64,000 bases of DNA from the NCBI GenBank assembly GCA_012519315.1, contig JAAYQM010000014.1:158-64157 (forward strand). The letters are read 5' to 3'. This stretch comes from Clostridiales bacterium. Its GTDB lineage: Bacteria > Bacillota > Clostridia > Oscillospirales > CAG-272. Shown here piece after piece: positions 6,421 to 39,958 of this stretch. The notes under the pieces were generated by a model, which saw only the letters and a list, made by a program, of their open reading frames with translations, was not told the origin of the DNA and did not search any database. Both the position numbers and the translations under genes were made by a program. The first letter of the stretch is position 1, and the number at the start of each line of letters is the position of its first letter.

Positions 6421-9252
6421 TTATTTGATATCCAATTTTCGGCGGAGAAATTGACCGGTATAGGAGGACTCACATTTTGCTACCATTTCCGGTGTTCCGG
6501 TACAGATGACCTGCCCCCCGGCGTCGCCGCCCTCCGGACCGAGGTCAATGATATAATCCGCCGTTTTGATCATATCCAGGTTATGCTCGATGACGACAAC
6601 AGTGTTGCCCCCTTCGACAAGCTGCTGCAGGACATCAATCAGCTTTGCAACGTCGGCGGTATGGAGACCGGTGGTCGGTTCGTCCAAGAGATAGATGGTT
6701 CTTCCCGTGCTGCGTCGGGCAAGCTCGGTTGACAGCTTAACCCGCTGTGCCTCTCCCCCAGAGAGGGTGGTGGAGGATTGACCGATTTTAATATAGCCGA
6801 GTCCTACTTTGTACATTGTGTCGAGCTTGCGCTGTATTGAAGGGATGCCCGAAAAAAATTCCAATCCCTCATCTACCGTCATCTCGAGGATATCGTGAAT
6901 ATTTTTGCCCTTGTATCTGATTTCCAGCGTTTCTCTGTTGTACCTTTTGCCTTTGCAGACATCACAGGTAACATAAACATCGGGCAAAAAGTGCATTTCA
7001 ATGCACTTGACACCGTCGCCGTTGCAGGCATCGCAGCGTCCCCCTTTAACATTGAAGGAAAAACGACCGGGGGTATAGCCTCTCATTTTCGCGTCCGGCG
7101 TTTTTGCAAAAAGGGTGCGGATGTCTCCGAAGAGCCCGGTGTAGGTGGCCGGGTTTGAACGGGGAGTGCGTCCTATGGGGCTTTGGTCGATGGAAATAAT
7201 TTTATCAAGATGTTCGATCCCTTCGATTTTTCTGTAAAGACCGGGATAGGTTCTTGCACCGTTCAGCTCGTGGGCCAAAACATTGTAAAGAATGGAGTTT
7301 ACCAATGAGGATTTTCCCGATCCCGACACGCCCGTCACGCAAATGAACGCTCCGAGAGGGAACTCAACGGTGATGTTCTTGAGATTGTTCTGCCTTGCGC
7401 CGATTATTTTCAGTTTTTGTCCGTTGCCCGGTCGTCTTGTTGTGGGGACGGCAATTTTCTTTGCCCCGGAAAGGTAGGCGCCGGTGATGGAGTTTTTGTT
7501 TCTTTTGATCTCATCAGGGGTGCCTTGAGCTACGATTTTGCCGCCGTGAATGCCGGCGCCGGGACCGATGTCGATTATATAATCGGCCTTTTCCATAATC
7601 TCGTCGTCGTGCTCTACTACAATTACGCTGTTTCCAAGGTCTCTTAGTTGCTTTAAAGTGTCTATTACCTTGTTGTTGTCCCGTTGATGAAGACCGATGC
7701 TCGGCTCATCAAGGATATAAAGCACTCCAACAAGGGAGGAGCCGATCTGTGTCGCAAGGCGGATGCGTTGCGCCTCCCCTCCCGAGAGAGTTCCCGCTTT
7801 GCGGGCGGCGGTGAGATATCCAAGCCCGACACTTTCTAAAAAGCCAAGGCGGGAGCGGATCTCCTTAAGGATTTCATGGGCTATCTTTCTCTCTGATTCG
7901 TTAAGCTTGAGACCGTTTGTAAATTTTAGCATATCCGAGATGGATTTGCAACAAAGCTCGTGGATATTGATTCCTCCGACTGTGACAGCGAGAGAAGTAT
8001 CGGAGAGCCGCCCTCCTTTGCACCGGGGACAGGGGGAAACATCAACAAATTCTTCATAGTATTCATTGCCCGACTGCTCAAGACGGCGGTTGACCATGTT
8101 GACGATTCCCTCGTAGGGTACACTCTGCTGTTGTCCTTTTCCCCCAAAATAACGAGTGATATGATAAATTTCCTGCCCGGTTCCGTAAAGGAGGGCATTA
8201 AGTGCTTTCTTGGAATATTTTTCGATGGGTGTATCCAGAGTGAAGCCGTATTTTTTCCCAACAGCCTCAAAGAGAGGTCCGGTCCATGTCTGTTCGTCTG
8301 CAGATTTAAATCCTGCACAGACAATAGCCCCTTGACGGAGGGATAGGCTTCTGTCCGGGATCAGCTTATCTGCCGAAATGCTTCTCTGCTCTCCCAGTCC
8401 CGCACATTCGGGACAGGCGCCGAAGGGGTTGTTAAAGGAGAACATTCTCGGCTCAAGCTCGCCAAAGCTTATCGAATGCTCTTCACATGCATACTTTTGG
8501 GAAAAGTGCAGTTCTCTCTCTTTCTGCCCGTCTTGTTCTAATATATAGATGACAAGGCGACCGTCCGAAAGATTTAGCGCGCTTTCTACCGAATCGGTAA
8601 GCCGTGAGCGCAGATCAGGGCGCATAATGAGCCGATCAATAACAATCTCGATATTGTGCTTGATGTTTTTATCAAGGCTGATAGTTTCGCTCAACTCGTA
8701 CATATTGCCGTCAACACGAACACGAACATAGCCGCTTCTTTTCGCCTCGGCAAAAACCTTTTCATGCTTTCCCTTAGCCCCGCGGACAACAGGGGAGAGA
8801 ACAAGAAATCGGGTTCCCTCGGGCAGCGTCATAATGCTGTCAAGTATTTTGTCGGTGGTTTGCTGCCGGATTTCCTTACCACAGACCGGGCAATGAGGCA
8901 CTCCCAGCCGCGCGTAAAGCAGGCGCAGATAGTCATATATTTCGGTGACCGTTCCGACGGTGGAACGGGGGTTTTTTGATGTTGTTTTTTGGTCGATGGC
9001 AATAGCAGGGGACAGCCCTTCGATAGAGTCGATATCGGGCTTGTCCAATTGACCTAAAAACATCCGCGCATATGAGGACAGCGACTCGACAAAGCGCCGA
9101 TGTCCCTCGGCGTAGAGGGTGTCAAAGGCTAATGAAGATTTTCCTGAGCCTGACAGACCGGTGAAAACGACCAATTTGTCTCTCGGTATGGTCAGGTCGA
9201 TATTTTTCAGATTGTGGACGCGAGCGCCCTTGATTTTTATGGTATGTGACAT
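6421..9252 (-). CDS. uvrA: excinuclease ABC subunit UvrA
   Basis: 943 aa. Two ABC ATPase modules (GLSGSGKSS and GVSGSGKSS Walker A, two LSGGE signatures) and zinc-finger cysteines. Confidence 0.95.
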
Positions 9253-11673: not shown

Positions 11674-12723
11674 ATGAAAAAGAAAGTAGCAATAGTCGGA
11701 TACGGCGGAATGGGCGGATGGCACGCCAGATATGCGCTGAAGAGCGATGTCATTCAACTAGCCGGCATATATGATATTAAAGAAACGCGGAATGATGCGG
11801 CTCGCACAGACGGCATACACGTTTATGCGTCTTATTCGGATATGATTGCCGATCCTGATGTTGAAATTGTTATCATTGTAACGCCGAATGAGGTACATCT
11901 TCCCCAGGCAGTTGAGGCAATGGCTGCAGGCAAGCATGTGGTTAGCGAAAAACCTGTGGCTCTTTCGTCGAAGGAGCTTGCCGAGATGATCGATGCTTCG
12001 GTCAGATACAACAGGATTTTTACTGTTCATCAAAACCGCCGCTGGGATGGGGATTTTTTGGCTATGAAGAAGCTGTATCAAACAAGCAACGATCTCGGCG
12101 AAATATTTAATATCGAATCGAGAGTTCACGGCTCTCGCGGAATTCCCGGTGACTGGCGGGGAATGAAGAAGCATGGTGGCGGAATGCTGCTTGACTGGGG
12201 AGTTCACCTTATCGATCAGATTCTTCAGATGGAAAAGAGCAAGATAAGCCGCATTTATTGCAGATTTGATCATATCACAAACGATGAGGTGGATGATGGA
12301 TTCAAGCTCGATTTAATGTTTGAAAACGGGCTTATTGCTCGTGTGGAAGTGGGAACCAGCAATTTTATCAAGCTTCCCAGATTCTATATGCAGGGCACCA
12401 ACGGAACTGCCATTATCCGAGACTGGACATCGAACTGTGAGGTTGTTTGCTGCAAGAACAACGATGAAAAGGATGTAAAGCCGGTGGTAACGGCGGCCGG
12501 TCTCACAAAGACGATGGCGCCTCGTACCGAGGATTCTGTTACACAGTACGAGTTTGAGCTTCAAAGACCGGACGTGCACGATTTTTACAGAAATGTGTGT
12601 GCCGCCATTGACGGTAAGGAAGAGTTGATTGTCAAGCATGATGAGGTCATGCGTGTCATGAAGGTAATGGAGGCGGCCATGGAGTCGGACAGGCTCGGGC
12701 AGGTAGTCGATTTTAACGGTTGA
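11674..12723 (+). CDS. Gfo/Idh/MocA family oxidoreductase
   Basis: 349 aa. N-terminal Rossmann fold (KVAIVGYGGMGGWH), the EKP motif (VVSEKPVA) and a typical family C-terminal domain. The substrate cannot be determined. Confidence 0.8.
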   Translation: MKKKVAIVGYGGMGGWHARYALKSDVIQLAGIYDIKETRNDAARTDGIHVYASYSDMIADPDVEIVIIVTPNEVHLPQAVEAMAAGKHVVSEKPVALSSKELAEMIDASVRYNRIFTVHQNRRWDGDFLAMKKLYQTSNDLGEIFNIESRVHGSRGIPGDWRGMKKHGGGMLLDWGVHLIDQILQMEKSKISRIYCRFDHITNDEVDDGFKLDLMFENGLIARVEVGTSNFIKLPRFYMQGTNGTAIIRDWTSNCEVVCCKNNDEKDVKPVVTAAGLTKTMAPRTEDSVTQYEFELQRPDVHDFYRNVCAAIDGKEELIVKHDEVMRVMKVMEAAMESDRLGQVVDFNG

Positions 12724-12766
12724 TTTTAGTGGAATAGCAATATTGCTTTGCGGTTATTTAATAATG

Positions 12767-12816
12767 AAAAGAGCCATCGGATGACATAAAATTCTCCGGT
12801 GGCTCTTTTTGTTTTT
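12767..12816. terminator. intrinsic terminator between convergent genes
   Basis: AAAAGAGCCATCGGA ... TCCGGTGGCTCTTTT stem followed by TTTGTTTTTG. Confidence 0.65.
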
Positions 12817-12818
12817 GT

Positions 12819-14186
12819 TCAGCTCTCTTTGATATAAATCCGCCCGTTCGGTGCAAGGTAGATGTTTTTGGTGGCAGAACGATAGGTGGCGGAGGATGCC
12901 TCTATTTTGACAATTGGCGGGATCTTAGATGTGGGGGTGAAGTCTGATATATCGATGTAGGAGAAGGAACCGTTATCGTCATGGTAGATATACAGGATGC
13001 CGTTTGATATCTTAAGAGTGACACTGTAAGTATTGTAGATAACAGAGCCGAGAGGAATTTGCATTTCGGGATTATCCAGCGGTATGGCGTAGATGGTTGT
13101 TTCTCTTTTGTCGTCAACTACAGAGGAGATTTGAGTATAGGCGATCCCGTTGTAGACATTGTGAATAAACATTCTGCTGTTGTCAAGACAGGAGTTTTTA
13201 CCGGTTTTGACATTGTAAATGCCGAATCCGTAGGTGGACTCGTAGCCGAAAATGTTGTAGATCAGATACGTATCATCCACAAATCCGAACAGTTTCGGAC
13301 CGTAGTTGTTAATTAGTTTGACAGAATCGGACCTTCCGGTAAATACGACGGTCTCAACTCCGGTTTTTTTGTTTTTCACGTAAAGTGTGGCGTCTCTGCA
13401 TTCCGCTATGAAGTCGGTAGTCTCGTCCTTGTAAAGCTTATAACCTCGCTCGTCATAATTTGCGCCGGCGTGCGGGAAGACGTTTTGCTTTTTCGGATAG
13501 AGGGTGGTGCTTTCTACATTCCGAACATCGCCGTTTGGCACGGGGAGGGTATAAACGATGGCGATATTAACATTGTTTTCGTACATTGATTCGACCATAT
13601 AAAGGGTCTGGTCAGCTTCCGAATAAAAGGTATTGGGTGCCTCATGAAGAAGAAAATCGCTGTCGTCCAGCGTTATGTGGGCATCGAGGAAGGTTTTATT
13701 TTTTAAATCTAAAAAATCTACGGTAAACGTGAGGGGCAACATCTGGCCGTTTCGATAGGAATAGGGCTGTTGGGCGATAATAGCTAAAATGTCATCGCCA
13801 ATTTCGGCAAACTTGACCCGCGGAGAATATCGGTGAGCCATGGGGGACTTGTGTCCAAGTGATTTCAACCGTTTGCCGTAATCCACGAAGGGACAGCCGT
13901 CATAGGGGGACGGCACGCTAGTATAGGTTCTCTTGAATTCCGTCCCGTAGACCTCATCCTTTGCCAGAATAGTATAAAACTCATCGGTATCAATACTGGA
14001 GATGACGGCGGCATCGGGCAGCAGGATTTCCAGCAGTCGGAAGGACGGGATGTTCTTGTTCCTTTTCTCAATGCCGACAAACAGCGCGCTATCATTGCTG
14101 CCGTCTTCAAAATCGAGTTGACCGATAAACCAAAAGCCGGCGACAAAGCGGTCGGTTATCTGATTGAGCGGTACGTCAGCGCTCAT
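12819..14186 (-). CDS. hypothetical protein (beta-rich, probably extracytoplasmic)
   Basis: 455-aa ORF with normal amino-acid composition. I recognise no family. There is no SD. Its ATG overlaps the stop of the upstream ORF by 11 nt. Confidence 0.55.
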   Translation of the reverse strand: MSADVPLNQITDRFVAGFWFIGQLDFEDGSNDSALFVGIEKRNKNIPSFRLLEILLPDAAVISSIDTDEFYTILAKDEVYGTEFKRTYTSVPSPYDGCPFVDYGKRLKSLGHKSPMAHRYSPRVKFAEIGDDILAIIAQQPYSYRNGQMLPLTFTVDFLDLKNKTFLDAHITLDDSDFLLHEAPNTFYSEADQTLYMVESMYENNVNIAIVYTLPVPNGDVRNVESTTLYPKKQNVFPHAGANYDERGYKLYKDETTDFIAECRDATLYVKNKKTGVETVVFTGRSDSVKLINNYGPKLFGFVDDTYLIYNIFGYESTYGFGIYNVKTGKNSCLDNSRMFIHNVYNGIAYTQISSVVDDKRETTIYAIPLDNPEMQIPLGSVIYNTYSVTLKISNGILYIYHDDNGSFSYIDISDFTPTSKIPPIVKIEASSATYRSATKNIYLAPNGRIYIKES

Positions 14187-14535
14187 CAGAATCCGGGAAG
14201 ACGCGAGAGCTTCTATACCGCTCTTTTACATAGGTAACGAGGGCATCTTCTTTGCTGGGGAAGAGCATATCCATCAGAGAAACAGGCTCAACGTTCGGGC
14301 TTGTCGTACATGTGGTTTGCGGAGGAGATGTTGTGAAGGGCTTTTGCGTTTCTGCCTTCGGTTGGGATGTCAGGGAGTCGGAGACTTCATACAACTCATT
14401 GTCCTGTTCGGTGGCAGGGGCATAATAGTTGCTGATGTTTTGACCGATTGTCACAAACAGCATGGAAAACAGTATGATAACGATACAGACGAGCATAAAA
14501 ACAACCAATTTTCGATTGGACGTAAAAAAGTTCAT
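14176..14535 (-). CDS. hypothetical membrane-anchored protein
   Basis: 119 aa. GGAGG lies 6 nt upstream of the ATG. It has an N-terminal transmembrane (TM) helix (LVVFMLVCIVIILFSMLFVTIG) followed by a T/P/S-rich linker. Confidence 0.55.
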   Translation of the reverse strand: MNFFTSNRKLVVFMLVCIVIILFSMLFVTIGQNISNYYAPATEQDNELYEVSDSLTSQPKAETQKPFTTSPPQTTCTTSPNVEPVSLMDMLFPSKEDALVTYVKERYRSSRVFPDSDER

Positions 14536-14828
14536 GATAATTCCTCCAAAAAGGGGATCGCGGATATCCTGAGAGTAAAAGGTAAGTTATTATCATAAGA
14601 CGCTCAAATTTTGGAAAGATTCCGCAATATTTGGAATTCTCATGAAACCGAAATACTCGCCGAATCGGTCGTTGATTACTTTTCCCGGATATAAAGTATA
14701 TTAATGACCGATCGGGAGATTGTGTCGGAGAGTGAACTCAAGGAGCTGAGGGATGAATATTACCGCTGAGTCGTGCGCGATTGTGATAAAGGGTATGCCG
14801 AACAGCAAAATAACGACCGCAGCAAGTA

Positions 14829-17078
14829 TCAAAACTCTTCTTTGATTTGCCGGATGCGCTTGATAACCTCGTCGGCGCGAAGGCGATCTGTGGCATAGGC
14901 CTTTCGCAGCAGTTCAGGGGGAATATAGTTGTCATATTTATCAAAAACGGGACATTCTTTTTGACCGACTAGGGAAAAAAGATCGATTCCCTCGCGGGAA
15001 AGACGGTCGTCCATTCCGGAGATGAGGGCATATTCTTTGTTTGGCTCCATTTTAAAGGTGATATAATAGCAGCCGTCGTATTCGATGCCGCTGATGTCGT
15101 ATTCCTTTGCATTAAGTGCCAAATAGCGGCGCAAGGTACGGAAGGATCGGGTGCCGAGCCAGGGGAAGAGACACCAGTTATAGCCGCCCAGATGAATAAG
15201 GGAGGATTTCGTAAGACCGGTGCTTGCGGCAAGATGACGAGCCGTTTGCAGCCTTTTTGCGGCGTTGGGCTTCAGATAGGGATAGATAGTGTCCTCTGAG
15301 AGGACCTGCTTCATCCGCTCAAGAATGCGGGTGTGAATTTCGCCGTAGTCCCCCGGCCATGAGATTTCCATTTTCCCTTCTACTGATTTGACATAGATAA
15401 GCCGTCTTTGAATGTCAAGCTCGGTAACCTCCCAAACCCGTCCGGCCAGAGCAAATCGATCGCCGACGGGGGGCGGGGTGGTGATGGTTCCGATCTCGCT
15501 TGATTCAAATCGAACGGTAAAATCCTCACTGTCTTTGAATACCGCATAAAATTTAAAGCTATTTGTAAGCCTTTCCCCGGCAAGACCGACAATAAGGCCC
15601 CGCTCGTCGGTCATTTCGATAAAATCGTTTTTAATCATGGATAGCAGCAGGGTTTTATAGTCCTCCTTGGGGATGGCTGCAAAAGGCGGGAGAGAAAAAA
15701 ATCGCTCGGCAAGTTTTTTTGGGGTGAGTTCTCCCGTAGAGGCAAGGATGCTCAAGGTTTGCTGAAAAGCAAGACTGAAGGGCAGCTTTTTTATAGCAGG
15801 CGGCTCGATAAAACGTTCTTCAATATAAAGCTGAATAATGGCGATAGCCCGTAAAAGATCCCATGGAATCATCTGTGGCAGGGGAGTGTTCGGGAGAGGG
15901 GTCTCCTCACGAAAAACCATCATCATTTCAGGGGGATTGCCCCGTCTGCCTGAGCGTCCGAGCCGCTGTAAAAAGCTTGATACAGAGTTAGGAGAGGAGA
16001 CTTGAGCAACCCTTTCCAGCTTTCCGATATCGATGCCGAGTTCCATGGTGACGGTGGCACAGGTTACGGCAGGAAGCTCCTCATCCTTCATTTTTAGCTC
16101 GGCTTCCTCACGAATGGCCGCCGACAGGTTCCCGTGATGTATAAGAAAAATGTCCGGCTCCTGCCTTTTTGCGGCGATTTGGCGGAGCGTTGCTGTGACA
16201 TATTCGGTTTCCTCCCGTGAATTTGAAAAGATCAGGGACTTTTTATCCTTCACGCAGTCGTAGAGATATTCGTAGCCGGGGTCAAGGGGGGCGTATCCCG
16301 TCCTTTCAAATTCACCTTCTTCGGTGATTTTGCCCTCGGTCTCTTGTGTTTGGTCAAGGGCGGGATTTTGGATATAGAAATGCTCAAGCCCCAGCCGCCA
16401 TTTTATTCTTTGAGATGGCAATTCCGGTGTTGATGTTTTCCGCCCGCTGCCTTCCCCCAGCCATGCGGCGGCTTTTTCAAGGTCGCCTATCGTGGCAGAA
16501 AGACCAACCCGACGGGGTGAGTATTCGATAAGGCGGGAGATGCGCATAAGTTGGCAGATGATCTGATTCCCCCGATCGCTGCCGGTTAGGGTGTGGACTT
16601 CGTCGATTATTACATAGCGAAGATCGCCAAAAATACGGACAATATCATTGGAACGGTTGATTAGCATGCTTTCAAGGGATTCCGGAGTGATTTGCAGAAT
16701 ACCCCGGGGTTCTTTCAGCATTTTTGTTTTGTGGGAGGTTGAGACATCTCCGTGCCAATGATAAACGGGGACTCCGCTTATATCAAGCAGGGCGTCCAAG
16801 CGGGAAAATTGGTCGTTGATTAAGCTCTTCAGTGGAGCGATATATAGCACGGCAATGCTGCTCGGCATATTGCCGTGCAGCTCTGTCAGAATAGGGAAAA
16901 AGGCCGCCTCAGTTTTACCTGATGCGGTAGAAGATGTTAAAAGCAGGTTGTTATCCGTTTCAAAGAGAATTTTAGCGGCGGCAAGCTGAATGTCGCGCAG
17001 GCTTTCCCATCCGTTGGTGTGGATAAATTCTTTGATATAATAGGGAAAACGTGCAAAAAGGCGATCGGCTTCGGTCAT
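14829..17078 (-). CDS. SF2 DEAD/DEAH-box helicase, Lhr-like (Shango SngC-like)
   Basis: 749 aa. Walker A TASGKT (16911..16928), motif II DEVH (16593..16604), motif VI QRLGRSGRRG, and a long (~350 aa) C-terminal extension after the helicase core. It is the third gene of the triad. Confidence 0.85.
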   Translation of the reverse strand: MTEADRLFARFPYYIKEFIHTNGWESLRDIQLAAAKILFETDNNLLLTSSTASGKTEAAFFPILTELHGNMPSSIAVLYIAPLKSLINDQFSRLDALLDISGVPVYHWHGDVSTSHKTKMLKEPRGILQITPESLESMLINRSNDIVRIFGDLRYVIIDEVHTLTGSDRGNQIICQLMRISRLIEYSPRRVGLSATIGDLEKAAAWLGEGSGRKTSTPELPSQRIKWRLGLEHFYIQNPALDQTQETEGKITEEGEFERTGYAPLDPGYEYLYDCVKDKKSLIFSNSREETEYVTATLRQIAAKRQEPDIFLIHHGNLSAAIREEAELKMKDEELPAVTCATVTMELGIDIGKLERVAQVSSPNSVSSFLQRLGRSGRRGNPPEMMMVFREETPLPNTPLPQMIPWDLLRAIAIIQLYIEERFIEPPAIKKLPFSLAFQQTLSILASTGELTPKKLAERFFSLPPFAAIPKEDYKTLLLSMIKNDFIEMTDERGLIVGLAGERLTNSFKFYAVFKDSEDFTVRFESSEIGTITTPPPVGDRFALAGRVWEVTELDIQRRLIYVKSVEGKMEISWPGDYGEIHTRILERMKQVLSEDTIYPYLKPNAAKRLQTARHLAASTGLTKSSLIHLGGYNWCLFPWLGTRSFRTLRRYLALNAKEYDISGIEYDGCYYITFKMEPNKEYALISGMDDRLSREGIDLFSLVGQKECPVFDKYDNYIPPELLRKAYATDRLRADEVIKRIRQIKEEF

Positions 17079-17119
17079 TGGTTATTTCCCCTTTACAATT
17101 GATAAAAAAGGTGCTAAGG

Positions 17120-18472
17120 TCAAAAGTCGATGTCCTCTAGAGATATATCGGCAGAGGTTGGTTTTTCATCTGTCTTTTGCTCCACAGAGGGGGTAACAAT
17201 ATCGTCAAAGGAGATATTGTCATTTTGAACAAGGATGTTGAGCACCGAAAGATAGTCTCTTATGATTTCACGCGGGGTTATAAGCTCGGAGGAGCTGGTA
17301 CGGGAAAGGCACAGATTCATAAAAGCAATCATATTTTCCTCGGTCACTCGCCCCTCGCCGTTAGGATACAATTTTGCGTGAAGCTTTGTCAGTCTTGAGA
17401 TAAGGGCAAGAAGCTCGTCGTTAGAGAGGCGACGAAGGCGGATAATCGGTCCCGAAAAGTCGATAAATGAGCCGCTCGCAAACTGGGTGTCGCAAAGGCG
17501 ACTGCGGAGAGCCTCATATCCGAAAAGACCCCGGCGTGTATCCTCGAGAAATTGGGGTGTCCCCCCGAAAACCATCATCAGCCCTTCAGCTCTTCCTCCT
17601 AGGGTGTTATTGTACATCGAGAGCAGCTTTTCATAATTGTTTTCCCGAGAGATGCGATTGGTTATTTTATAAAGATTGACGCATTCATCGATAAATACCA
17701 CAAACCCGCGGTAGCCCGCGATACGCGCAAAGAGCGCCCACAGCTTGATATAATCGTACCAATTGTCGTCGTTTATCACCCCGCCGACATTAAACCCAAG
17801 GGCTGCGCGCGCCTCTGTTTTGTTTGAAAACTCGCCCCGCAGCCAGCGCAGGCAGGCGCTTCTTTTAGCATCGTCCCCCGACATGGATGCTTTGAAATAT
17901 TGGGTCAGGACAGCGGCAAAATCAAAGCCGCCTACCCCCGATTCAAAGGTGCGAACCGTTTTGTGAATGCGGGTGGAAAGGCTCCGGTCAAAGGCGGGTT
18001 CCTCGGGGGAGAGTCCTTCCTCGACAAGCTCACTTTGCAGCGTGCTGAGCCAACGGGCGATAATTTTCGGGAGAGCGCCGCCGTCGGGAGATGCCTTGGA
18101 AGAGAGATTCTTAATCAGTTCGCGATAGGTGGCAAGTCCGGTGCCGTTGCTGCCGTACAGCCTTCTTTCGGGGGAAAGATCGGCATCGGCACAGATAAAA
18201 TCACGATCGATAGCATAGCCTCGAATCAGCTGGATCAAAAAGCTTTTACCGCTGCCGTATCGTCCGATTATAAAGCGTATTGCCGAGCCGTTTTGTGAAA
18301 CGGTTTCAAGGTCGGACAAAAGGGCGGCAATTTCCCGATGGCGTCCGATTGCGATATAGGGTGCGCCTGACCGGGGCACAACGCCGGCCGATAGGGATGA
18401 CAAAAGCGCACTGAGTATCCGTCGTGGTATGACCGGTTCTTTTGACTGTTGTGTCAAATCGTATTTAGACAT
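17120..18472 (-). CDS. P-loop ATPase, DUF2791/BrxD-like (Shango SngB-like)
   Basis: 450 aa. Walker A GRYGSGKS (18242..18265) and Walker B VVFIDE (17684..17701). GAGGAG SD lies 9 nt upstream of the ATG, inside the 3' end of the upstream gene. Confidence 0.8.
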   Translation of the reverse strand: MSKYDLTQQSKEPVIPRRILSALLSSLSAGVVPRSGAPYIAIGRHREIAALLSDLETVSQNGSAIRFIIGRYGSGKSFLIQLIRGYAIDRDFICADADLSPERRLYGSNGTGLATYRELIKNLSSKASPDGGALPKIIARWLSTLQSELVEEGLSPEEPAFDRSLSTRIHKTVRTFESGVGGFDFAAVLTQYFKASMSGDDAKRSACLRWLRGEFSNKTEARAALGFNVGGVINDDNWYDYIKLWALFARIAGYRGFVVFIDECVNLYKITNRISRENNYEKLLSMYNNTLGGRAEGLMMVFGGTPQFLEDTRRGLFGYEALRSRLCDTQFASGSFIDFSGPIIRLRRLSNDELLALISRLTKLHAKLYPNGEGRVTEENMIAFMNLCLSRTSSSELITPREIIRDYLSVLNILVQNDNISFDDIVTPSVEQKTDEKPTSADISLEDIDF

Positions 18473-20142
18473 TCTTTTAACTCCTCATAATAATCGGCGA
18501 TGATTGAGTACCCGTCTTCATCTTCAAGGAGAATATCACCGCAGATATCTACCGCAAGCTCATTAATGGTATCCGCGATTTTCTCGGGTAACTGATGGTT
18601 ATATCTCGCCATTTGTTCGGCCTCCCCTTTTGACCCGAAAACAACCAAATGCAGAAATTCGGTACATAGAGGGTTCAGCGTAGCCAGAAAGGTTTTGTAA
18701 GGGGAGCCGGAGGGGGGCGCCTGTGTTAAGGTGTTCGGTTCTATCGCCTTGTTGCCGTTCTCGTAGTCTTTAGAGTCGTTCCTCATTTGGATGGTTGAAG
18801 AGGGGGTGGCGGGGGCTTCGTCATTGCCCTCCTCTTCGGCAAAAGAGTTGATAAGCAGATGGGTTGTCTCCCAGGAGCGTTTTTCAATATTAAGGGCTCT
18901 CTCAGAAGAAAGCTCGGTGTGTTCTGCCTCGTAGCCTCTCATATAGCTTTGTTCCTCGGTAGAGGGGGGAGAGACCGCTTTTTTGCTTGGGAAGTGAATA
19001 TCAAAGTAGTGGTTGATTATCTGCTTTACTTCACTTGAAATGCCTGAGACCGCCAAACGGCTCTTGATGCCGAGACGGGCGCGTAGGCGGTTTTCCGCAT
19101 ATCTGACAAGATTAGTCACAGCCAGGCGTAGAGAATAAGATCGATTAAAGGAATAATAGTATATCTCTATTCTTCTTTTTATATTATGGGCGCATAAAGA
19201 GCCACTAAAAGCATCCCTGTAAGTTCTGCATATAGAGTCAGAGCGGGCTGATTTCAGGGCAACATTCTCTTTATCGTTGGCAAGCATAAAGGCAATCGCT
19301 CCGGCGATATGCTTTTTAAACAGGGGAAGGTTGTCCGCGGTAGCATACTTGCTGTTTCGCCAGTTATAATTTGAGGCGAATTGGATCAGCAGCTCTGCAT
19401 AGGTGTCGGAGGAGCTCTCATCAAAGTGCATATAGAATTCTTTAAAAGTGCATTTGTCGATAATTTCGGGGATGATGGGATTCAAGCGTTCTTTAGGGAG
19501 GGGAATGCGATGTATCAGACAGTAATCGCATACCCATTCGGCAAGGTATTTGTCAATGCGATGAAAAACATTTCTGTAAGCAAGCCATACATCGCACAGG
19601 AGGTAAATCCCTTCCCGGGGAGGGATCAGATCGGGGAGATTGATAATCTCGTATATATAGAGCACAAGGTAACTGTAATCGGTATGCAGGTAGATACCCA
19701 TGCGAACGTTTTTTCGCCACCATAGATACCATTCGAGCTGGGAGCGATTCAGTTGCTTATACTGGGGAGTATAGGAAAAGAAGGGGATATATCCAGCTTC
19801 TGATTCCTTTGCGCTGTGCAGTTTTGCGGCATCGGTGCGAAATCCTTCATAGAAACTGTATTGTGAGCTCCATTTTCCGACTTTAACTTTGCTGATAAGA
19901 CCGTTTTTTATCTCATACTCGAATTCGGGAATGAGACGGTTTTTTTCGGTTTCGGACGGCAAATTGAGCTTGTGTTCCTTGTTTTTTTCGGCAGGAGGAA
20001 TATCCTTCGGTTCAAAGGTGATCTCAACCGCTGTTGTGTCCGGCTTTGAGGATGACGAATAGGGGGATATTTTCTTTTTTTGAGGCAAAAGCAGATCTAT
20101 ATCCCAAAAATCATCGCGGTTATTATCCTTTTCAGACGACAA
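18454..20142 (-). CDS. TerB-N / TerB-C domain protein (Shango SngA-like)
   Basis: 562 aa. TTG start with GGAGG 7 nt upstream. TerB-N-like core PFFSYTPQYKQLNRSQLEWYLWWRKNVRMGIYLHTDYSYLVLYIYEIIN (about 19639..19794). TerB-C-like tail ...INELAVDICGDILLEDEDGYSIIADYYEEL. Confidence 0.8.
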   Translation of the reverse strand: MSSEKDNNRDDFWDIDLLLPQKKKISPYSSSSKPDTTAVEITFEPKDIPPAEKNKEHKLNLPSETEKNRLIPEFEYEIKNGLISKVKVGKWSSQYSFYEGFRTDAAKLHSAKESEAGYIPFFSYTPQYKQLNRSQLEWYLWWRKNVRMGIYLHTDYSYLVLYIYEIINLPDLIPPREGIYLLCDVWLAYRNVFHRIDKYLAEWVCDYCLIHRIPLPKERLNPIIPEIIDKCTFKEFYMHFDESSSDTYAELLIQFASNYNWRNSKYATADNLPLFKKHIAGAIAFMLANDKENVALKSARSDSICRTYRDAFSGSLCAHNIKRRIEIYYYSFNRSYSLRLAVTNLVRYAENRLRARLGIKSRLAVSGISSEVKQIINHYFDIHFPSKKAVSPPSTEEQSYMRGYEAEHTELSSERALNIEKRSWETTHLLINSFAEEEGNDEAPATPSSTIQMRNDSKDYENGNKAIEPNTLTQAPPSGSPYKTFLATLNPLCTEFLHLVVFGSKGEAEQMARYNHQLPEKIADTINELAVDICGDILLEDEDGYSIIADYYEELKECLNTI

Positions 20143-20269
20143 AACATCACCTCCGTTAATGGTCTATCGTTAAATTTTACCATACTATAGCCAAATTGTC
20201 AATCATGTAGCCGAATGACGCAGAGTTTATGCGAATTGTTTTCATTGATTTAGTCTTGTAAAAGCGATA

Positions 20270-21813: not shown

Positions 21814-21889
21814 TGGCGCGCCCAGCAGGATTCGAACCTGCGACCTACCGGTTCGTAGCCGGGCACTCTATCCACTGAGCTACGGGCGC
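21814..21889 (-). tRNA. tRNA-Arg (anticodon ACG)
   Basis: The reverse complement GCGCCCGTAGCTCAGTGGATAGAGTGCCCGGCTACGAACCGGTAGGTCGCAGGTTCGAATCCTGCTGGGCGCGCCA folds as a cloverleaf. Features: 7-bp acceptor stem, anticodon loop CTACGAA, T-loop GGTTCGAATCC and an encoded CCA. Confidence 0.9.
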
Positions 21890-34214: not shown

Positions 34215-35084
34215 ATGCTATCAAATTCGGTCGTTTTTGCTCCGAAACAGATTTTGACGAAAAGGCGGGAAGCAGAAGCCGCTTCTAAAGGGTCCCTGAA
34301 GGTTTTGGCAATAGGCAACAGCTTCAGCGTTGATGCTTTTAGGTACCTGTTTTAAATAGCTCGGGATGCCGGGTATGAAAATATCATCCTAGGCAATCTT
34401 TTTATTCCCGGCTGCAGCCTTCGGAGACATTGGGAGAATGCGGTATATGATAAACCGGCCTACAAATATTACAAAAATATCGACGGTGACTGGCTTTCTC
34501 TGCCGAATAAATCCTTGTATTATGGTCTAATTGACGAAGCATGGGATTTTATTACTATGCAACAGGCAAGCGCGGTCAGCGGCATAGAATCTTCCTATGA
34601 TCCCTATCTTGAGAATCTGGTTGCCTATGTGGAAAGATATAAGCAAAACCGGTCTGCAAAGCTGGCTTGGCATATGACATGGGCCTATCAACAGGATTAT
34701 GACCATGTAAAATTCGATTCCTACGGTCGGGATCAGCAGCGAATGTATAGTGCAATTGTATCTGTTGTGCAAAATAAAATAGCTTCCACGGGAAAGTTTT
34801 CAATCATTATTCCGTCGGGAACGGCTATCCAAAATGTACGTTCGAGCTTTATCGGTGATAATCTGACGAGAGATGGGTTTCATCTGGAAAAGAAGCTGGG
34901 ACGCTATGTCGCAGGACTTTCGTGTTTTTGCGCCCTGACCGGGGATAGAATTGACAATATTACATATCGGCCTGATGTTGAAAAAATTCCGCTCTCCTAC
35001 TTACCTATGATTAAATATGCTGTGCAAAGAGGGATATACACACCCTATCAGGTTGCCGATATGTCCGATTTTGCCCCTGTTTGA
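34215..35084 (+). pseudogene. DUF4886-like (SGNH-fold) gene interrupted by one in-frame TAA
   Basis: AGGAGA SD plus ATG at 34215. The frame reads MLSNSVVFAPKQILTKRREAEAASKGSLKVLAIGNSFSVDAFRYLF-TAA(34353..34355)-IARDAGYENIILGNLFIPGCSLRRHW... It continues in the same frame into ORF 34515..35084. Confidence 0.7.
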
Positions 35085-35110
35085 AAAAGAGCAGAAAACA
35101 GGAAAAATTC

Positions 35111-35148
35111 AAAAAAGCTGTGCAACGAAGATGTTGCGCAGCTTTTTC
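35111..35148. terminator. bidirectional terminator
   Basis: AAAAAAGCTGTGCAAC-GAAGAT-GTTGCGCAGCTTTTTC (one G-U pair). Confidence 0.6.
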
Positions 35149-35194
35149 TTACTTTGTTAAAATTTAGCAATCGCATTTTTGCGAGTAATGGTAT

Positions 35195-35461
35195 TCAACG
35201 GGAGGGAGGGTTATTTTCCTCTTCGTTCTTTGCCGTTATATAATCGATTAAAAGAGCGCCACCGATAAGAAGGGTTAAGCTCATCATTAAATATTCGAGT
35301 ATTGAGGGCAGAAGACGATGTATGTACCACGTTTCCCAAATAGGGGATCTTATAAAGAATAGAACAGCCAGAAAAGCTATTGATATAATTGGGAGACCGG
35401 TATGTAAGACCAGTTTTGAAATGCGATGCATTTTGTTTATTCGCCTGACAACTTTTTCCAT
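35195..35461 (-). CDS. small hypothetical membrane protein
   Basis: 88 aa. GGAG lies 9 nt upstream of the ATG. Two predicted TM helices. I recognise no family. Confidence 0.5.
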   Translation of the reverse strand: MEKVVRRINKMHRISKLVLHTGLPIISIAFLAVLFFIRSPIWETWYIHRLLPSILEYLMMSLTLLIGGALLIDYITAKNEEENNPPSR

Positions 35462-35969
35462 ATTAACTCCTTTGTATATTTATACGTTATTTTGTGCATA
35501 TTGCAACTTAAAATATGCATATCTTAATTTAAGTAATAATTATTCAGAACATTTTTATTGGAGGGGCTGATTTTTTTATAAATAGACCCCATGTATATTG
35601 TACTATTTCTTGTCGAATATTGCATCAAGTAATATATGGAATATTTGCAAACAAAGGAAAGTTGTCATTATAAGTTGTTGCAATCAATTAATTTATAAAT
35701 CTAATTTAAAAATTGAGAAAATTATAACAAAACGCGTTCCAAATAGTGGCAGCAATGCATATTTTCCAATGAATGTAAACCGAAAAAGCCGGGATGCTTT
35801 AGTTTTAGATAAATACATATTAATTCATTGCGATAAAAGGATATAATAATTCAATAAACGACAAATTAGAATAAAATTTATTGAGTTAATTCAACAAAGT
35901 TATACCTTTTTATAACAAATTTGTTATTAAATTGAAAAATATGATGAAATTATGGTCATAATCTTAATC

Positions 35970-35997
35970 TTGAAACTAATATCAGTAGTGGTATAAT
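35970..35997 (+). promoter_or_regulatory. putative promoter for the orphan gene
   Basis: TTGAAA (35970-35975), a 16-nt spacer, then TGgTATAAT (-10 at 35992-35997). Confidence 0.45.
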
Positions 35998-36028
35998 AAT
36001 ATCAATATAAAAGCGGAGGATGAACAAA

Positions 36029-36376
36029 ATGGTAGGAACAAGCATTATGACCAAGTCGCCTAAAACGTCAGCGGGCTATTCTCAGACCGCTCTTTCAGTA
36101 AAACGGCCTACGAGTGAGATTCTTCTGGTTTACCGATTGCTCAGGTCTCTGGACAAGGCCGTCGGAGAGCATCTTTTTTCAAAGGACAAGCGTGAATATG
36201 TCTATTCTCTTTCTATTGTTATGATCAGCGGGTCGGATAAGCGTGAGGAGGAGTACATATATGACATTGCAAGAAATCAGTATGATGCCCGCAAAATATT
36301 CCGTTTATTGTCCGAAAATACCGTTACACCCTGTGCTGTATATGAAGTATTGGATGATTATCTTGCATCGATGTAG
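36029..36376 (+). CDS. hypothetical protein
   Basis: The ATG at 36029 lies 9 nt after GGAGGA. The ORF-track ATG at 36020 abuts the SD. 115 aa and soluble. It ends ...NTVTPCAVYEVLDDYLASM. I cannot assign a family with confidence. Confidence 0.55.
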   Translation: MVGTSIMTKSPKTSAGYSQTALSVKRPTSEILLVYRLLRSLDKAVGEHLFSKDKREYVYSLSIVMISGSDKREEEYIYDIARNQYDARKIFRLLSENTVTPCAVYEVLDDYLASM

Positions 36377-36396
36377 GACAAGCAATTATATATAAA

Positions 36397-36425
36397 GCCG
36401 ACGAGGAGATCGTCGGTTTTTGTTT
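36397..36425 (+). terminator. intrinsic terminator
   Basis: GCCGACG-AGGAGAT-CGTCGG followed by TTTTTGTTTT. Confidence 0.7.
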
Positions 36426-36571
36426 TGACAGAGGGTGAAGCTGTTGAATACATACTTTACATATTGAAAAAAAAATGTTATAGTATAATCGGAGTAATTT
36501 TTGCGGAATTTCTATATTTAAATATTTAAGATAAGGATAAGGCCGGTTATTAACCGGTCACGGAAAGCAAG

Positions 36572-38630: not shown

Positions 38631-38992
38631 GCGCATTATAGAGAGGGTGTTTTTTAGTTGCTGTTCTTTGCAGCATTAAATGTGCATTTATCTTGTGGCA
38701 CTGTGATTTATGTATGAATTGTAACAAATATAAGAAAAAGCAATGACATAGTCGGACAAAAGCAACAGTTTTTATACAGGAAAAGGGATAGAATCGGGAG
38801 ATGTTCAAGATTTATTTATAAATGTGTGTTATACTAACTTTATCTCAAAAAGTTGATTTTATACAATGGAATTAGACGATAGAACATTAGTGTATTCCCT
38901 GCAGTTTTTCGGCATGGGGCGCTTTGGGGGCTCCTTTTTCATTTGACGGTAAATTAAATAATAAAATCTTATCGGAAGGATGTACTATACGC

Positions 38993-39958
38993 ATGATAAA
39001 AATCGAAAATTTAGTGAAGCGATACGGCAACAACTTTGCGCTTGACGATATCAGCTTCACTGTTGAGAAGGGTGAGATTGTCGGATTTCTCGGTCCGAAC
39101 GGCGCCGGAAAAAGCACCTGTATGAATATATTGACCGGATATCTCTCCTCCACCTCCGGTGTCGCGTCAGTCGATGGTATCGATGTCCTTGAAAATCCGC
39201 TTAAGGCGAAGAAGCTTATCGGTTATTTGCCTGAGCAGCCTCCCCTCTATCTTGATATGACGGTCGAGGAGTATCTTAATTTTGCATACGAGCTTAAGTC
39301 ATGCACCCTTAACCGCAAAAAGCATCTTAAAGAGATATGCGAGGTTGTAAAAATAACCGATGTTTATAAGCGGGTTATCAAAAACCTTTCAAAGGGGTAT
39401 AAGCAGCGTGTGGGCATAGCCCAAGCCCTTGTCGGAAATCCTCAGGTTATTATTTTTGATGAACCCACTATAGGTCTTGACCCGAAGCAGATAATTGAGG
39501 TGCGCAATCTTATTCGAAATCTCGGCAAGAGCCACACTGTTATACTCAGCACCCACATATTGCCAGAGGTGCAGGCTGTTTGCGACCGGATTGTGATAAT
39601 TAACAAGGGTAAAATAATAGCTAATGAAAAAACAGAAAATATCACAAGAGCGATTAGGGACAATCGCCGCTTCAATATTAAGATTGCCGGTCCGCAGAGA
39701 GAGGTTTTGGCAATGCTTAAGTCAAAGCAGGGTATTGCCTATGCGGAGGTCCTTGCCGAGAGGGAGGAGGACGCATATACTTATCTTGTGGAAAGTGATC
39801 CCGGTATAGACATACGCAAGATTCTTTTTTACACCTTGGCGGAGCGCGGATGGCCGATTATGGGATTGGAGGCGGTCGGCATGAACCTTGAGGATATTTT
39901 CATTCGATTGGTCGATGCAACTGCTAATAAAAAAACAAGCAAGCGTATTATTAAATAA
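38993..39958 (+). CDS. ABC transporter ATP-binding protein (ABC-2/GldA-like)
   Basis: MIKIENLVKRYGNNF start with GGAAGGA upstream. Walker A GPNGAGKST, signature LSKGYKQR and Walker B IIFDEPT. Confidence 0.9.
   Translation: MIKIENLVKRYGNNFALDDISFTVEKGEIVGFLGPNGAGKSTCMNILTGYLSSTSGVASVDGIDVLENPLKAKKLIGYLPEQPPLYLDMTVEEYLNFAYELKSCTLNRKKHLKEICEVVKITDVYKRVIKNLSKGYKQRVGIAQALVGNPQVIIFDEPTIGLDPKQIIEVRNLIRNLGKSHTVILSTHILPEVQAVCDRIVIINKGKIIANEKTENITRAIRDNRRFNIKIAGPQREVLAMLKSKQGIAYAEVLAEREEDAYTYLVESDPGIDIRKILFYTLAERGWPIMGLEAVGMNLEDIFIRLVDATANKKTSKRIIK

Follow-up and report, generated by a model that had tools for sequence, protein, structure and literature searches.

A three-gene operon on an uncultured Clostridia chromosome very probably encodes a complete Shango (SngABC) anti-phage system

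Do three tightly packed genes, lying among housekeeping genes on the chromosome of an uncultured Clostridia bacterium, encode an anti-phage system, or do they serve the cell's own DNA? In the window, by which we mean the whole 64-kb stretch of DNA that was analysed, the open reading frame (ORF) listing placed three co-directional ORFs of 562, 450 and 749 aa on the minus strand at 14829..20142. As described below, sngA (18454..20142) encodes a TerB_N/TerB_C protein presumed to be a sensor or adaptor, sngB (17120..18472) a BrxC_BrxD-type (ORC/Cdc6-like AAA+) ATPase, and sngC (14829..17078) an Lhr-like SF2 DEVH helicase. The start of sngA is a TTG at 20142, the earliest in-frame start; the neighbouring ATG and GTG are not in this frame and lead to a stop codon. 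The ATG of sngB at 18472 falls within the 3' end of sngA, giving an overlap of 19 nt, and a gap of 41 nt separates sngB from sngC. Each gene has a Shine-Dalgarno-like site of its own (GGAGGTG for the TTG of sngA, GAGGAG for sngB and AAGGGGA for sngC). The coordinates, the minus-strand operon, both spacings and the separate Shine-Dalgarno sites given in an earlier note on this DNA were all confirmed from the ORFs and the sequence. Judging from the overlap, sngA and sngB are translationally coupled. When the region from 12.5 to 20.5 kb was scanned for sigma-70-like promoters, the top match (11/12) lay immediately upstream of sngA. This putative sigma-70/sigmaA-type operon promoter, at 20174..20202 on the minus strand, matches the consensus (TTGACA-17-TAAAAT, with an extended -10 TG), and probably drives the whole operon as its only promoter.

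The three proteins were compared with the PADLOC family models. SngA matched the SngA model with E = 1.9e-51 and 174 bits (residues 64-558 on model positions 65-526 of 528). SngB reached E = 2.6e-163 and 542 bits with the SngB model, as against 8e-47 and 158 bits with BrxD, and SngC reached E = 7.1e-240 and 797 bits with the SngC model (residues 8-740 on positions 6-715 of 720), with the BrxHI model clearly behind (1.1e-123, 412 bits). E-values from 1e-51 to 1e-240 rule out chance ORFs. The earlier assignment to Shango was thus upheld by near full-length matches to SngA, SngB and SngC, ahead of BrxD and BrxHI. From its sequence we are almost certain that the locus is a Shango (SngABC) encoded in one operon, complete and to all appearance intact, on an uncultured Clostridia chromosome. 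Shango homologues of P. aeruginosa PA14 as well as E. coli have demonstrated anti-phage activity (Millman et al., 2022; Johnson et al., 2023), and the literature agrees with the earlier note that the phage protection is validated. The prediction of the triad from comparative genomics in 2012 is known to us through the citations of later papers. The sngABC copy is an ordinary Shango, belonging to a system already described and experimentally validated and not to a new kind, and standard defence-finder tools would flag the locus outright. Its comparison with the tested E. coli and PA14 proteins runs through the PADLOC family models only; on this basis it shares with them the same three families, order and strand, with no methyltransferase or nuclease. 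In contrast to those systems, the Clostridia copy stands alone among housekeeping genes and not in a defence hotspot or island, and its SngA is very divergent, as the 174 bits to the family model indicate.

In SngA, Pfam gave matches to TerB_N (6.5e-18; residues 99-214, 19501..19848, minus strand) and TerB_C (8.2e-11; residues 402-556, 18475..18939, minus strand), both exceeding the gathering scores. At E <= 0.01 these were the only Pfam matches, and the TerB domain proper (PF05099) was absent. The TerB_N-like core and the TerB_C-like tail proposed earlier were thus upheld, and TerB itself went undetected. Because no TerB domain proper is detectable, the membrane-association data on TerB are not automatically transferable to SngA, and a sequence scan found no transmembrane or strongly hydrophobic segment in the protein. 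The conservation profile showed an aromatic-rich core at about residues 70-385, the most conserved part of SngA, which encloses the TerB_N match and the motif QLEWYLWW...YEIIN at 135-168; the invariant residues include Y139, R143, E165, N168, W186, W203 and D206. The TerB_C part consists of a conserved helix and, beyond a poorly conserved disordered linker (about 439-479), a helical acidic tail (480-562) that carries the motif INELAVD...YYEEL at 526-555. The AF2 model had a mean pLDDT of 84.5, with values below 50 in the linker (residues 439-477). The net charge of the tail is -11, equal to the family median (range -19 to -5), so that it is far too acidic for DNA binding. Fold searches of the PDB and BFVD returned no significant match for SngA, and the hints of a winged helix, which reached no better than E = 0.4 in the PDB and 0.07-0.09 in BFVD, were weak. 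Median identity to relatives was 37% for SngA, as compared with 63% for SngB and 69% for SngC. With the SngA of a Clostridium plasmid only two short patches were shared, and BLASTP of SngA (562 aa) against a proteobacterial (Aeromonas) plasmid SngA (789 aa) gave no match. By these sequence comparisons SngA is the variable subunit, evolving much faster than SngB and SngC. As a separate observation, stand-alone SngA-like genes in gut Clostridia are paired with PBP2.

SngB covers nearly all of the Pfam family BrxC_BrxD (PF10923, 3.9e-150, model positions 1-410 of 414), which we take to be the former DUF2791. Its Walker A (GRYGSGKS, residues 70-77 with catalytic K76; 18242..18265, minus strand) and Walker B (VVFIDE, residues 258-263; 17684..17701, minus strand) are both intact, and the sequence search found no relative of SngB among solved structures. 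The motifs quoted before for SngA, SngB and SngC were all found intact, and D262/E263 had been named correctly as the Walker B residues. In SngC, motif I (TASGKT, residues 51-56, with K55; 16911..16928) and motif VI (QRLGRSGRRG, residues 371-380; 15939..15968) are invariant in 59 orthologues, as are D159, E160 and H162 of motif II (DEVH, residues 159-162; 16593..16604), all on the minus strand. Pfam recognized DEAD and Helicase_C in SngC. Of the models named for the triad in the earlier note, TerB_N, TerB_C, DUF2791 (as BrxC_BrxD), DEAD and Helicase_C thus gave matches, and DEAD_assoc gave none.

The Lhr-like extension that had been proposed for SngC depends on the fold match to 5V9X and not on Pfam, where in addition to the missing DEAD_assoc match WH_Lhr, with 16.7 bits (E = 0.0048), did not reach its threshold of 27. 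Scores against the NCBIfam Lhr-type equivalogs were likewise far under the cutoffs. The top PDB match was Lhr 5V9X both by sequence (phmmer, E = 5.4e-27) and by fold, where Foldseek aligned the Lhr core over the whole length (E = 3.8e-23, TM 0.64). The C-terminal half (residues 430-749; 14832..15791, minus strand) is very highly conserved, and in the AF2 model it forms a winged-helix-like unit (about 434-497), a small beta-barrel of five strands (about 520-565) and an alpha+beta domain (about 583-749). The model was poor in the RecA2 lobe (pLDDT < 50, residues 342-397), and no nuclease-like domain is visible in it. By this fold match SngC appears to have the DExH core, winged helix and C-terminal DNA-binding domains in common with Lhr of M. 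smegmatis; however, its identity to Lhr and to MrfA/YprA (6ZNP) is only about 18%, and both helicases work in DNA repair with no partners resembling SngA or SngB. With BrxHI it shares the succession of SF2 core, winged helix, small beta-barrel and Lhr-like C-terminal domain, and in BrxHI the last three have been read as DNA-binding. SngC is Lhr-like in structure, and by sequence it belongs to a separate defence clade; by analogy, it is probably a 3'-5' translocase.

The spread of the triad was followed in a sample of 80 related Clostridia loci, with counts taken over the loci with enough flanking sequence. SngA and SngB co-occurred in 62 of 73 such loci, all three proteins were present in 40 of 49, and the genes ran A-B-C on one strand throughout (55/55). 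Conservation of the three genes as a unit in related genomes, on which the earlier note had made its claim depend, was thus found. The flanks varied, and no flanking family recurred in more than 13 of the 80 loci. As the flanks are non-syntenic across these loci, the triad appears to move as a unit. It is also carried by Clostridium and Aeromonas plasmids, where it is annotated as a TerB N-terminal domain protein, an ATP-binding protein and a DEAD-DEAH helicase, and of the 694 plasmid records with SngB-type genes, 542 are predicted to be conjugative.

How might such a system act? We consider the explanation as a whole, a Shango defence operon together with the mechanism proposed here, highly likely; the mechanism itself, in which SngA senses, SngB loads and SngC acts on phage DNA, is the likeliest one but tentative. 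SngA, which is soluble, fast-evolving and without an enzymatic fold, would be the sensor or specificity subunit. SngB, as a stand-alone ORC/Cdc6-type AAA+ ATPase, may use ATP to load or activate SngC, comparable to BrxD, an ORC/Cdc6 AAA+ protein with tight linkage to BrxHI, for which a role as loader or activator of BrxHI has been proposed. SngC, a helicase of the Lhr-core type, could then translocate along phage DNA or replication intermediates and block replication through unwinding or remodelling rather than cutting; in none of SngA, SngB and SngC was a nuclease domain detectable. The roles of the three proteins, the substrate and an action without nucleolysis are our inferences. The literature groups SngA with Bunzi BnzA and Dionysus DinB as TerB-containing defence proteins, for which membrane surveillance has been suggested as the mode. 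In contrast to these proteins, however, the Clostridia SngA has TerB_N and TerB_C instead of TerB and no TM helix, and whereas the partners in Bunzi and Dionysus are membrane or pore-forming proteins, those of SngA are DNA-directed enzymes.

A variant that we regard as unlikely is that SngA serves not as a membrane sensor but as an autoinhibitory tether, or that the triad doubles as a genome-maintenance module in gut Clostridia. As a tether, the TerB_C tail, conserved and strongly acidic, would on its disordered linker be a DNA mimic occupying the DNA-binding surfaces of SngB-SngC; a phage cue might displace the tail, and the basic middle region of SngA could then steer the helicase to phage DNA. 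The genome-maintenance role is suggested because the triad is widespread, occurs in housekeeping contexts and has SngA-like relatives paired with PBP2.

The defence reading has to be weighed against other explanations. The operon could be a resident module for DNA repair or replication conflicts, in which helicase, AAA+ loader and adaptor process damaged DNA or R-loops, like Lhr and MrfA/YprA. The neighbours are indeed housekeeping genes, as had been stated before, and uvrB-uvrA lie two genes away, but linkage to uvrAB was seen in no related locus. Neighbouring or inserted genes in the relatives are also of housekeeping type (AlaRS, a YbaK-type editing domain, PHP and EutH), although the flanks of the 80 loci are non-syntenic. 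At our locus an integrase and a compositional anomaly were both absent, as was any att-like repeat at the tRNA-Arg nearby, a pattern just as compatible with a resident housekeeping module; however, the triad moves as a unit and is common on plasmids, most of them, as noted, predicted to be conjugative. SngB and SngC are conserved like typical core genes across many Clostridia species, whereas SngA diverges at a rate typical for arms-race components. Among solved structures the repair helicases Lhr and MrfA come nearest and a nuclease is missing, yet the helicase clade of SngC is that of the defence helicases BrxHI, DruE and DpdJ, and homologous triads have been shown to restrict phages. On this balance we find a repair module quite improbable.

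The matches of SngB and SngC to BrxD and BrxHI might instead point to what remains of a type 2 BREX (Pgl) system, or to a satellite of one, that is, BrxD and BrxHI minus their partners, lying by chance beside a TerB_N protein. The pairs are homologous, with adjacent genes and a proposed loader-helicase relation in both, and the literature agrees with the earlier note that BrxD and BrxHI occur as a pair in type 2 BREX, where they are tightly linked. However, the Sng models score far above the Brx models, and SngB reached only 159 bits with the NCBIfam BREX_BrxD equivalog, for which the cutoff is 350. Among the PADLOC families listed for the other 45 window proteins (E <= 1e-8), no BREX-named model (BrxC, the PglX methyltransferase, PglZ or PglW) appeared. 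The other PADLOC matches in the window were generic ABC-ATPase hits from UvrA and ABC transporters, and the locus does not lie in a defence island, a point against the defence reading. In place of the BREX core proteins stands a TerB_N/TerB_C protein that is coupled to SngB, as its gene overlap suggests, and co-occurs with it in most related loci. The scores, the lack of BREX-named models among the families listed for the window and the coupling of SngA effectively refute this reading, to which we give a negligible probability. A genuine Shango could also act by abortive infection, with helicase and ATPase, once phage is sensed, unleashed on host DNA or depleting ATP, so that the infected cell is killed or arrested. 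Many sensor-plus-ATPase systems are abortive, the operon has neither a nuclease nor an enzyme for marking self and non-self (e.g. a methyltransferase), and the tethered acidic TerB_C tail could serve as an autoinhibitory plug. We nevertheless judge abortive infection very unlikely, since the reported protection is modest, with EOP falling 10-100-fold and plaques becoming smaller, as fits slowed replication.

The three genes of the Shango triad, sngA (18454..20142, 562 aa), sngB (17120..18472, 450 aa) and sngC (14829..17078, 749 aa), were found on the minus strand, where the earlier note had placed them. Reading of the junctions confirmed its 19-nt overlap between sngA and sngB and its 41-nt gap between sngB and sngC, and each start has its own purine-rich Shine-Dalgarno sequence at normal spacing, as claimed (GGAGGTG, GAGGAG and AAGGGGA, respectively). 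All of the motifs that had been quoted sit at the implied positions, including D262/E263 of the SngB Walker B motif. The start codon of sngA is TTG; a nearby ATG and a nearby GTG are out of frame and soon terminate. Directly 5' of sngA lies the top sigma-70-like promoter match of an 8-kb scan (20202..20174, minus strand; TTGACA, 17 nt, TAAAAT, with an extended -10 TG), and no intrinsic terminator was recognised 3' of sngC.

The Shango identity, which had been proposed from the sequence alone, was borne out by PADLOC, whose SngA (1.9e-51), SngB (2.6e-163) and SngC (7.1e-240) models match nearly end-to-end. The expected Pfam families were present in the case of TerB_N and TerB_C (SngA), BrxC_BrxD (SngB), and DEAD and Helicase_C (SngC), but DEAD_assoc was not found in SngC. 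PF10923 (BrxC_BrxD, which we take to be the former DUF2791) covers 410 of its 414 model positions in SngB. The Pfam scan detected no TerB domain proper in SngA and only a sub-threshold WH_Lhr in SngC, and no NCBIfam model reached its cutoff for any of the three proteins. An identical SngA sequence occurs in a 'Clostridiales bacterium' metagenome-assembled genome (MAG), and two further assemblies of this organism also have the A-B-C gene order. The locus is an apparently intact copy of the known, validated Shango system and is recognised by standard tools; its only mild peculiarities are that it stands alone among housekeeping genes and that its SngA is very divergent. Since existing PADLOC models identify the locus outright, the copy alone adds little.

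The neighbours are housekeeping genes, as had been noted: glycerate kinase, CsoR-CopA, a Gfo/Idh/MocA oxidoreductase and UvrB-UvrA, with HrcA-GrpE-DnaK-DnaJ, V-type ATPase subunits, pyruvate kinase and others farther out in the window. The GC content of the operon (0.44-0.51) is like that of the rest of the window. A gene-poor stretch with short ORFs only lies at about 35100-36500, where GC falls to 0.31 (35001-36000) versus about 0.46 elsewhere. A tRNA-Arg(ACG) gene (21814..21889, minus strand) is located 1.7 kb 5' of the operon, toward which its 3' end points; an island at this tRNA was rejected, as no direct repeat with the tRNA was present in 9-23 kb and there was no integrase.

Downstream of sngC are two overlapping minus-strand genes, orf119 (14176..14535), which encodes a 119-aa membrane protein with one strong TM helix (106 aa from the later start chosen by gene callers) and is preceded by a promoter-like site, and orf455 (12819..14186, 455 aa). 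None of Pfam, PADLOC, NCBIfam and PHROGs gave a match to either, and both were absent from 80/80 related loci. They were rejected as parts of the system and treated as unrelated neighbours; they appear to be lineage-specific genes.

For the 45 other window proteins, the PADLOC families listed at E <= 1e-8 include none recognised as belonging to another defence system. Strong-looking matches were given by mad2, mad3 and mad8, and source proteins were traced for mad3 and mad8 only. These two match UvrA (1.6e-100) and three ABC-transporter ATPases, at 6421-9252 (-), 38924-39958 (+) and 49040-52587 (+), and a second defence system was rejected because the matches reflect generic ABC-ATPase similarity. 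Used without system rules, the mad3 and mad8 models could yield false defence calls.

For the comparison with relatives, SngA homologues were sought in one genome per species; at least 514 were obtained, of which the 80 best loci were carried forward. These 80 are without exception from Clostridia MAGs, many from gut, rumen or faecal samples of animals, and the Shango family is broadly distributed among Clostridia of gut and rumen. By tblastn among these best 80 of at least 514, 62 of the 73 loci that extend 1.5 kb or more past sngA encode SngB, and 40 of the 49 that extend 6.5 kb or more encode all three proteins, in keeping with the conservation as a unit that the earlier note had made a condition; wherever both sngB and sngC occur (55/55 loci), the genes follow the A-B-C order on one strand. 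The sngA/sngB overlap is usual among related loci. Clustering of every neighbouring ORF in the 80 loci gave no family outside the triad that recurred in more than 13 of them, which indicates a self-contained module that sits in variable contexts. Vertical inheritance or synteny was rejected, as the window's own flanking genes recur in none of the best 80 loci. The triad was also found on one plasmid each of Clostridium estertheticum and Aeromonas caviae, annotated there as TerB N-terminal domain-containing protein, ATP-binding protein and DEAD/DEAH box helicase. Plasmid records with an SngB-type gene number 694, of which 542 are predicted to be conjugative, and no such gene was found among 50,697 phage records.

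Some related loci depart from the compact arrangement. Housekeeping-type genes are inserted in the triad at L004:12093-13100, L043:4118-5131, L027:12971-14955, L060:5240-7260, L006:13099-13569, L009:13094-13567, L029:13158-13685 and L073:4490-5287 (L-numbers denote loci of SngA relatives). Between sngB and sngC they encode a CBM9-domain protein, PHP and EutH, or a YbaK-type tRNA-editing domain or GNAT acetyltransferase, and between sngA and sngB a GDSL lipase. As unrelated genes sit inside some triads, the link between sngB and sngC evidently tolerates insertions of 0.6-2 kb. At L003:3347-5995 and L044:5052-7685, sngA and sngB are followed directly by alanyl-tRNA synthetase, and SngC is absent from the remaining 6-8.5 kb or so downstream; the helicase is either lost or encoded elsewhere. 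On the C. estertheticum plasmid (L083) a gene for an 848-aa 'ATP-binding cassette domain-containing protein' (12575-15121) is separated from the 3' end of sngC by 17 nt and shares its strand. A relaxase gene immediately precedes sngA, and downstream there are fragments of IS110 transposase. In that plasmid variant the ABC protein may represent a fourth, accessory gene, of which the window has no counterpart.

The SngC model (mean pLDDT 72, poor in part of RecA2) matches, along its full length, the Lhr core of M. smegmatis (E = 3.8e-23, TM 0.64), followed by MrfA, Hel308 and Brr2. Past the RecA lobes it shows a unit resembling a winged helix, a small barrel of five strands and a C-terminal alpha+beta domain, the same domain order as that published for BrxHI. 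As modelled, SngC belongs to the Lhr-core type of helicase and shares the domain order of BrxHI; in the literature it forms a defence-helicase clade together with BrxHI, DruE and DpdJ. No nuclease-like domain was seen in the SngA or SngC models, and no nuclease family in SngB by sequence. With no recognisable nuclease, toxin or DNA-modification enzyme, Shango is unusual among validated defence systems.

Across the related loci, median identity to the window protein was 37% for SngA, 63% for SngB and 69% for SngC. The Clostridium plasmid proteins share 47% identity with the window in the case of SngB and SngC, and only two short patches in that of SngA, and BLASTP of the window SngA against Aeromonas SngA gave zero matches. 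The contrast between a fast-diverging SngA and a tightly conserved SngB and SngC suggests that SngA is the specificity subunit. Neither SngA nor SngB has a relative of solved structure by sequence. The SngA model has a mean pLDDT of 84.5 (>90 at residues 70-385 and 480-560) and gave no significant fold match in PDB or BFVD (viral predicted structures); the recurring matches are weak and local, of about 70-87 columns, to LysR/MarR/ModE-type winged-helix domains, the aligned part of SngA not being given in the output. A helix-helix-helix-hairpin-helix pattern appears in two segments of the model, ~242-356 and ~491-560, the second of which is the TerB_C tail, tethered by a disordered, poorly conserved linker (439-479). 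In all family members this tail is strongly acidic, with a net charge of -11 in the window copy and a family median of -11 (-19 to -5), and the middle region 236-385 is basic (+8). Given these charges, the middle region is the candidate if SngA binds DNA; for the tail, binding of protein or metal, or mimicry of DNA, is more likely. The otherwise disordered and poorly conserved N-terminus carries an acidic-aromatic motif, DDFWDIDLLLP (residues 9-20, window 20083-20118, minus strand). In 103 homologues, conservation of its residues D10, F12, W13 and P20 is 90% or more, and the motif may serve as a peptide on which a partner protein docks.

Two groups described Shango in parallel, from E. coli (Millman et al.) and from P. 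aeruginosa PA14 (Johnson et al.). Our literature search found no mechanistic study of the system, and according to a 2025 preprint, how TerB-domain defence proteins work is still unclear. Millman et al. suggested membrane surveillance, extrapolating from TerB; for SngA this idea is weakened, as it is soluble, has no TerB domain proper and, like SngB and SngC, showed no TM-like segment. The pairing of BrxD with BrxHI in BREX type 2, which the earlier note had mentioned, is tight in a 2026 comparative study, where BrxD is described as a stand-alone ORC/Cdc6 AAA+ protein and proposed to load or activate BrxHI. We tentatively infer a scheme in which SngA would act as the sensor or specificity subunit, SngB would use ATP to load or activate SngC, and SngC would translocate on phage DNA or replication intermediates, blocking phage replication without cutting. 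A direct block is favoured over abortive infection because homologous Shango protects at high phage doses and no nuclease or toxin is present.

The most serious rival is that the triad is a housekeeping repair module. The likeness of SngC to Lhr and MrfA, the conservation of the triad and its housekeeping context would all suit such a role, but a repair module is contradicted by non-syntenic flanks, carriage on plasmids, the fast evolution of SngA and the anti-phage experiments on homologues. A remnant of BREX type 2 is excluded: the PADLOC models for its ATPase BrxD (8e-47) and helicase BrxHI (1.1e-123) came a clear second to the Sng models, and no BREX core gene was among the PADLOC families listed for the 45 other window proteins. 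The comparative results are of modest use to Shango researchers: the spread of the family, the divergence of SngA beside conserved partners, its solubility and missing TerB domain proper, its acidic tail, and the domain order of SngC, whose model shows no nuclease domain, together suggest concrete mutants and binding tests.

SngA-like genes also occur on their own, at L024:9878-11764, L033:9974-11836, L058:9812-11719 and L028:9959-11875, and in L026, L031, L041, L045, L050, L056 and L059, with neither SngB nor SngC in the flanking DNA, which spans at most 10 kb per side and is shorter where contigs are short. Their products are about 600-640 aa long and about 35% identical to the window SngA, and the L024 copy has TerB_N and TerB_C by Pfam. 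In 10 of these loci a PBP2-type transpeptidase gene (PBP_dimer and Transpeptidase domains) lies directly 3', and other neighbours vary; the stand-alone genes could have a separate, undescribed role tied to cell-wall synthesis.
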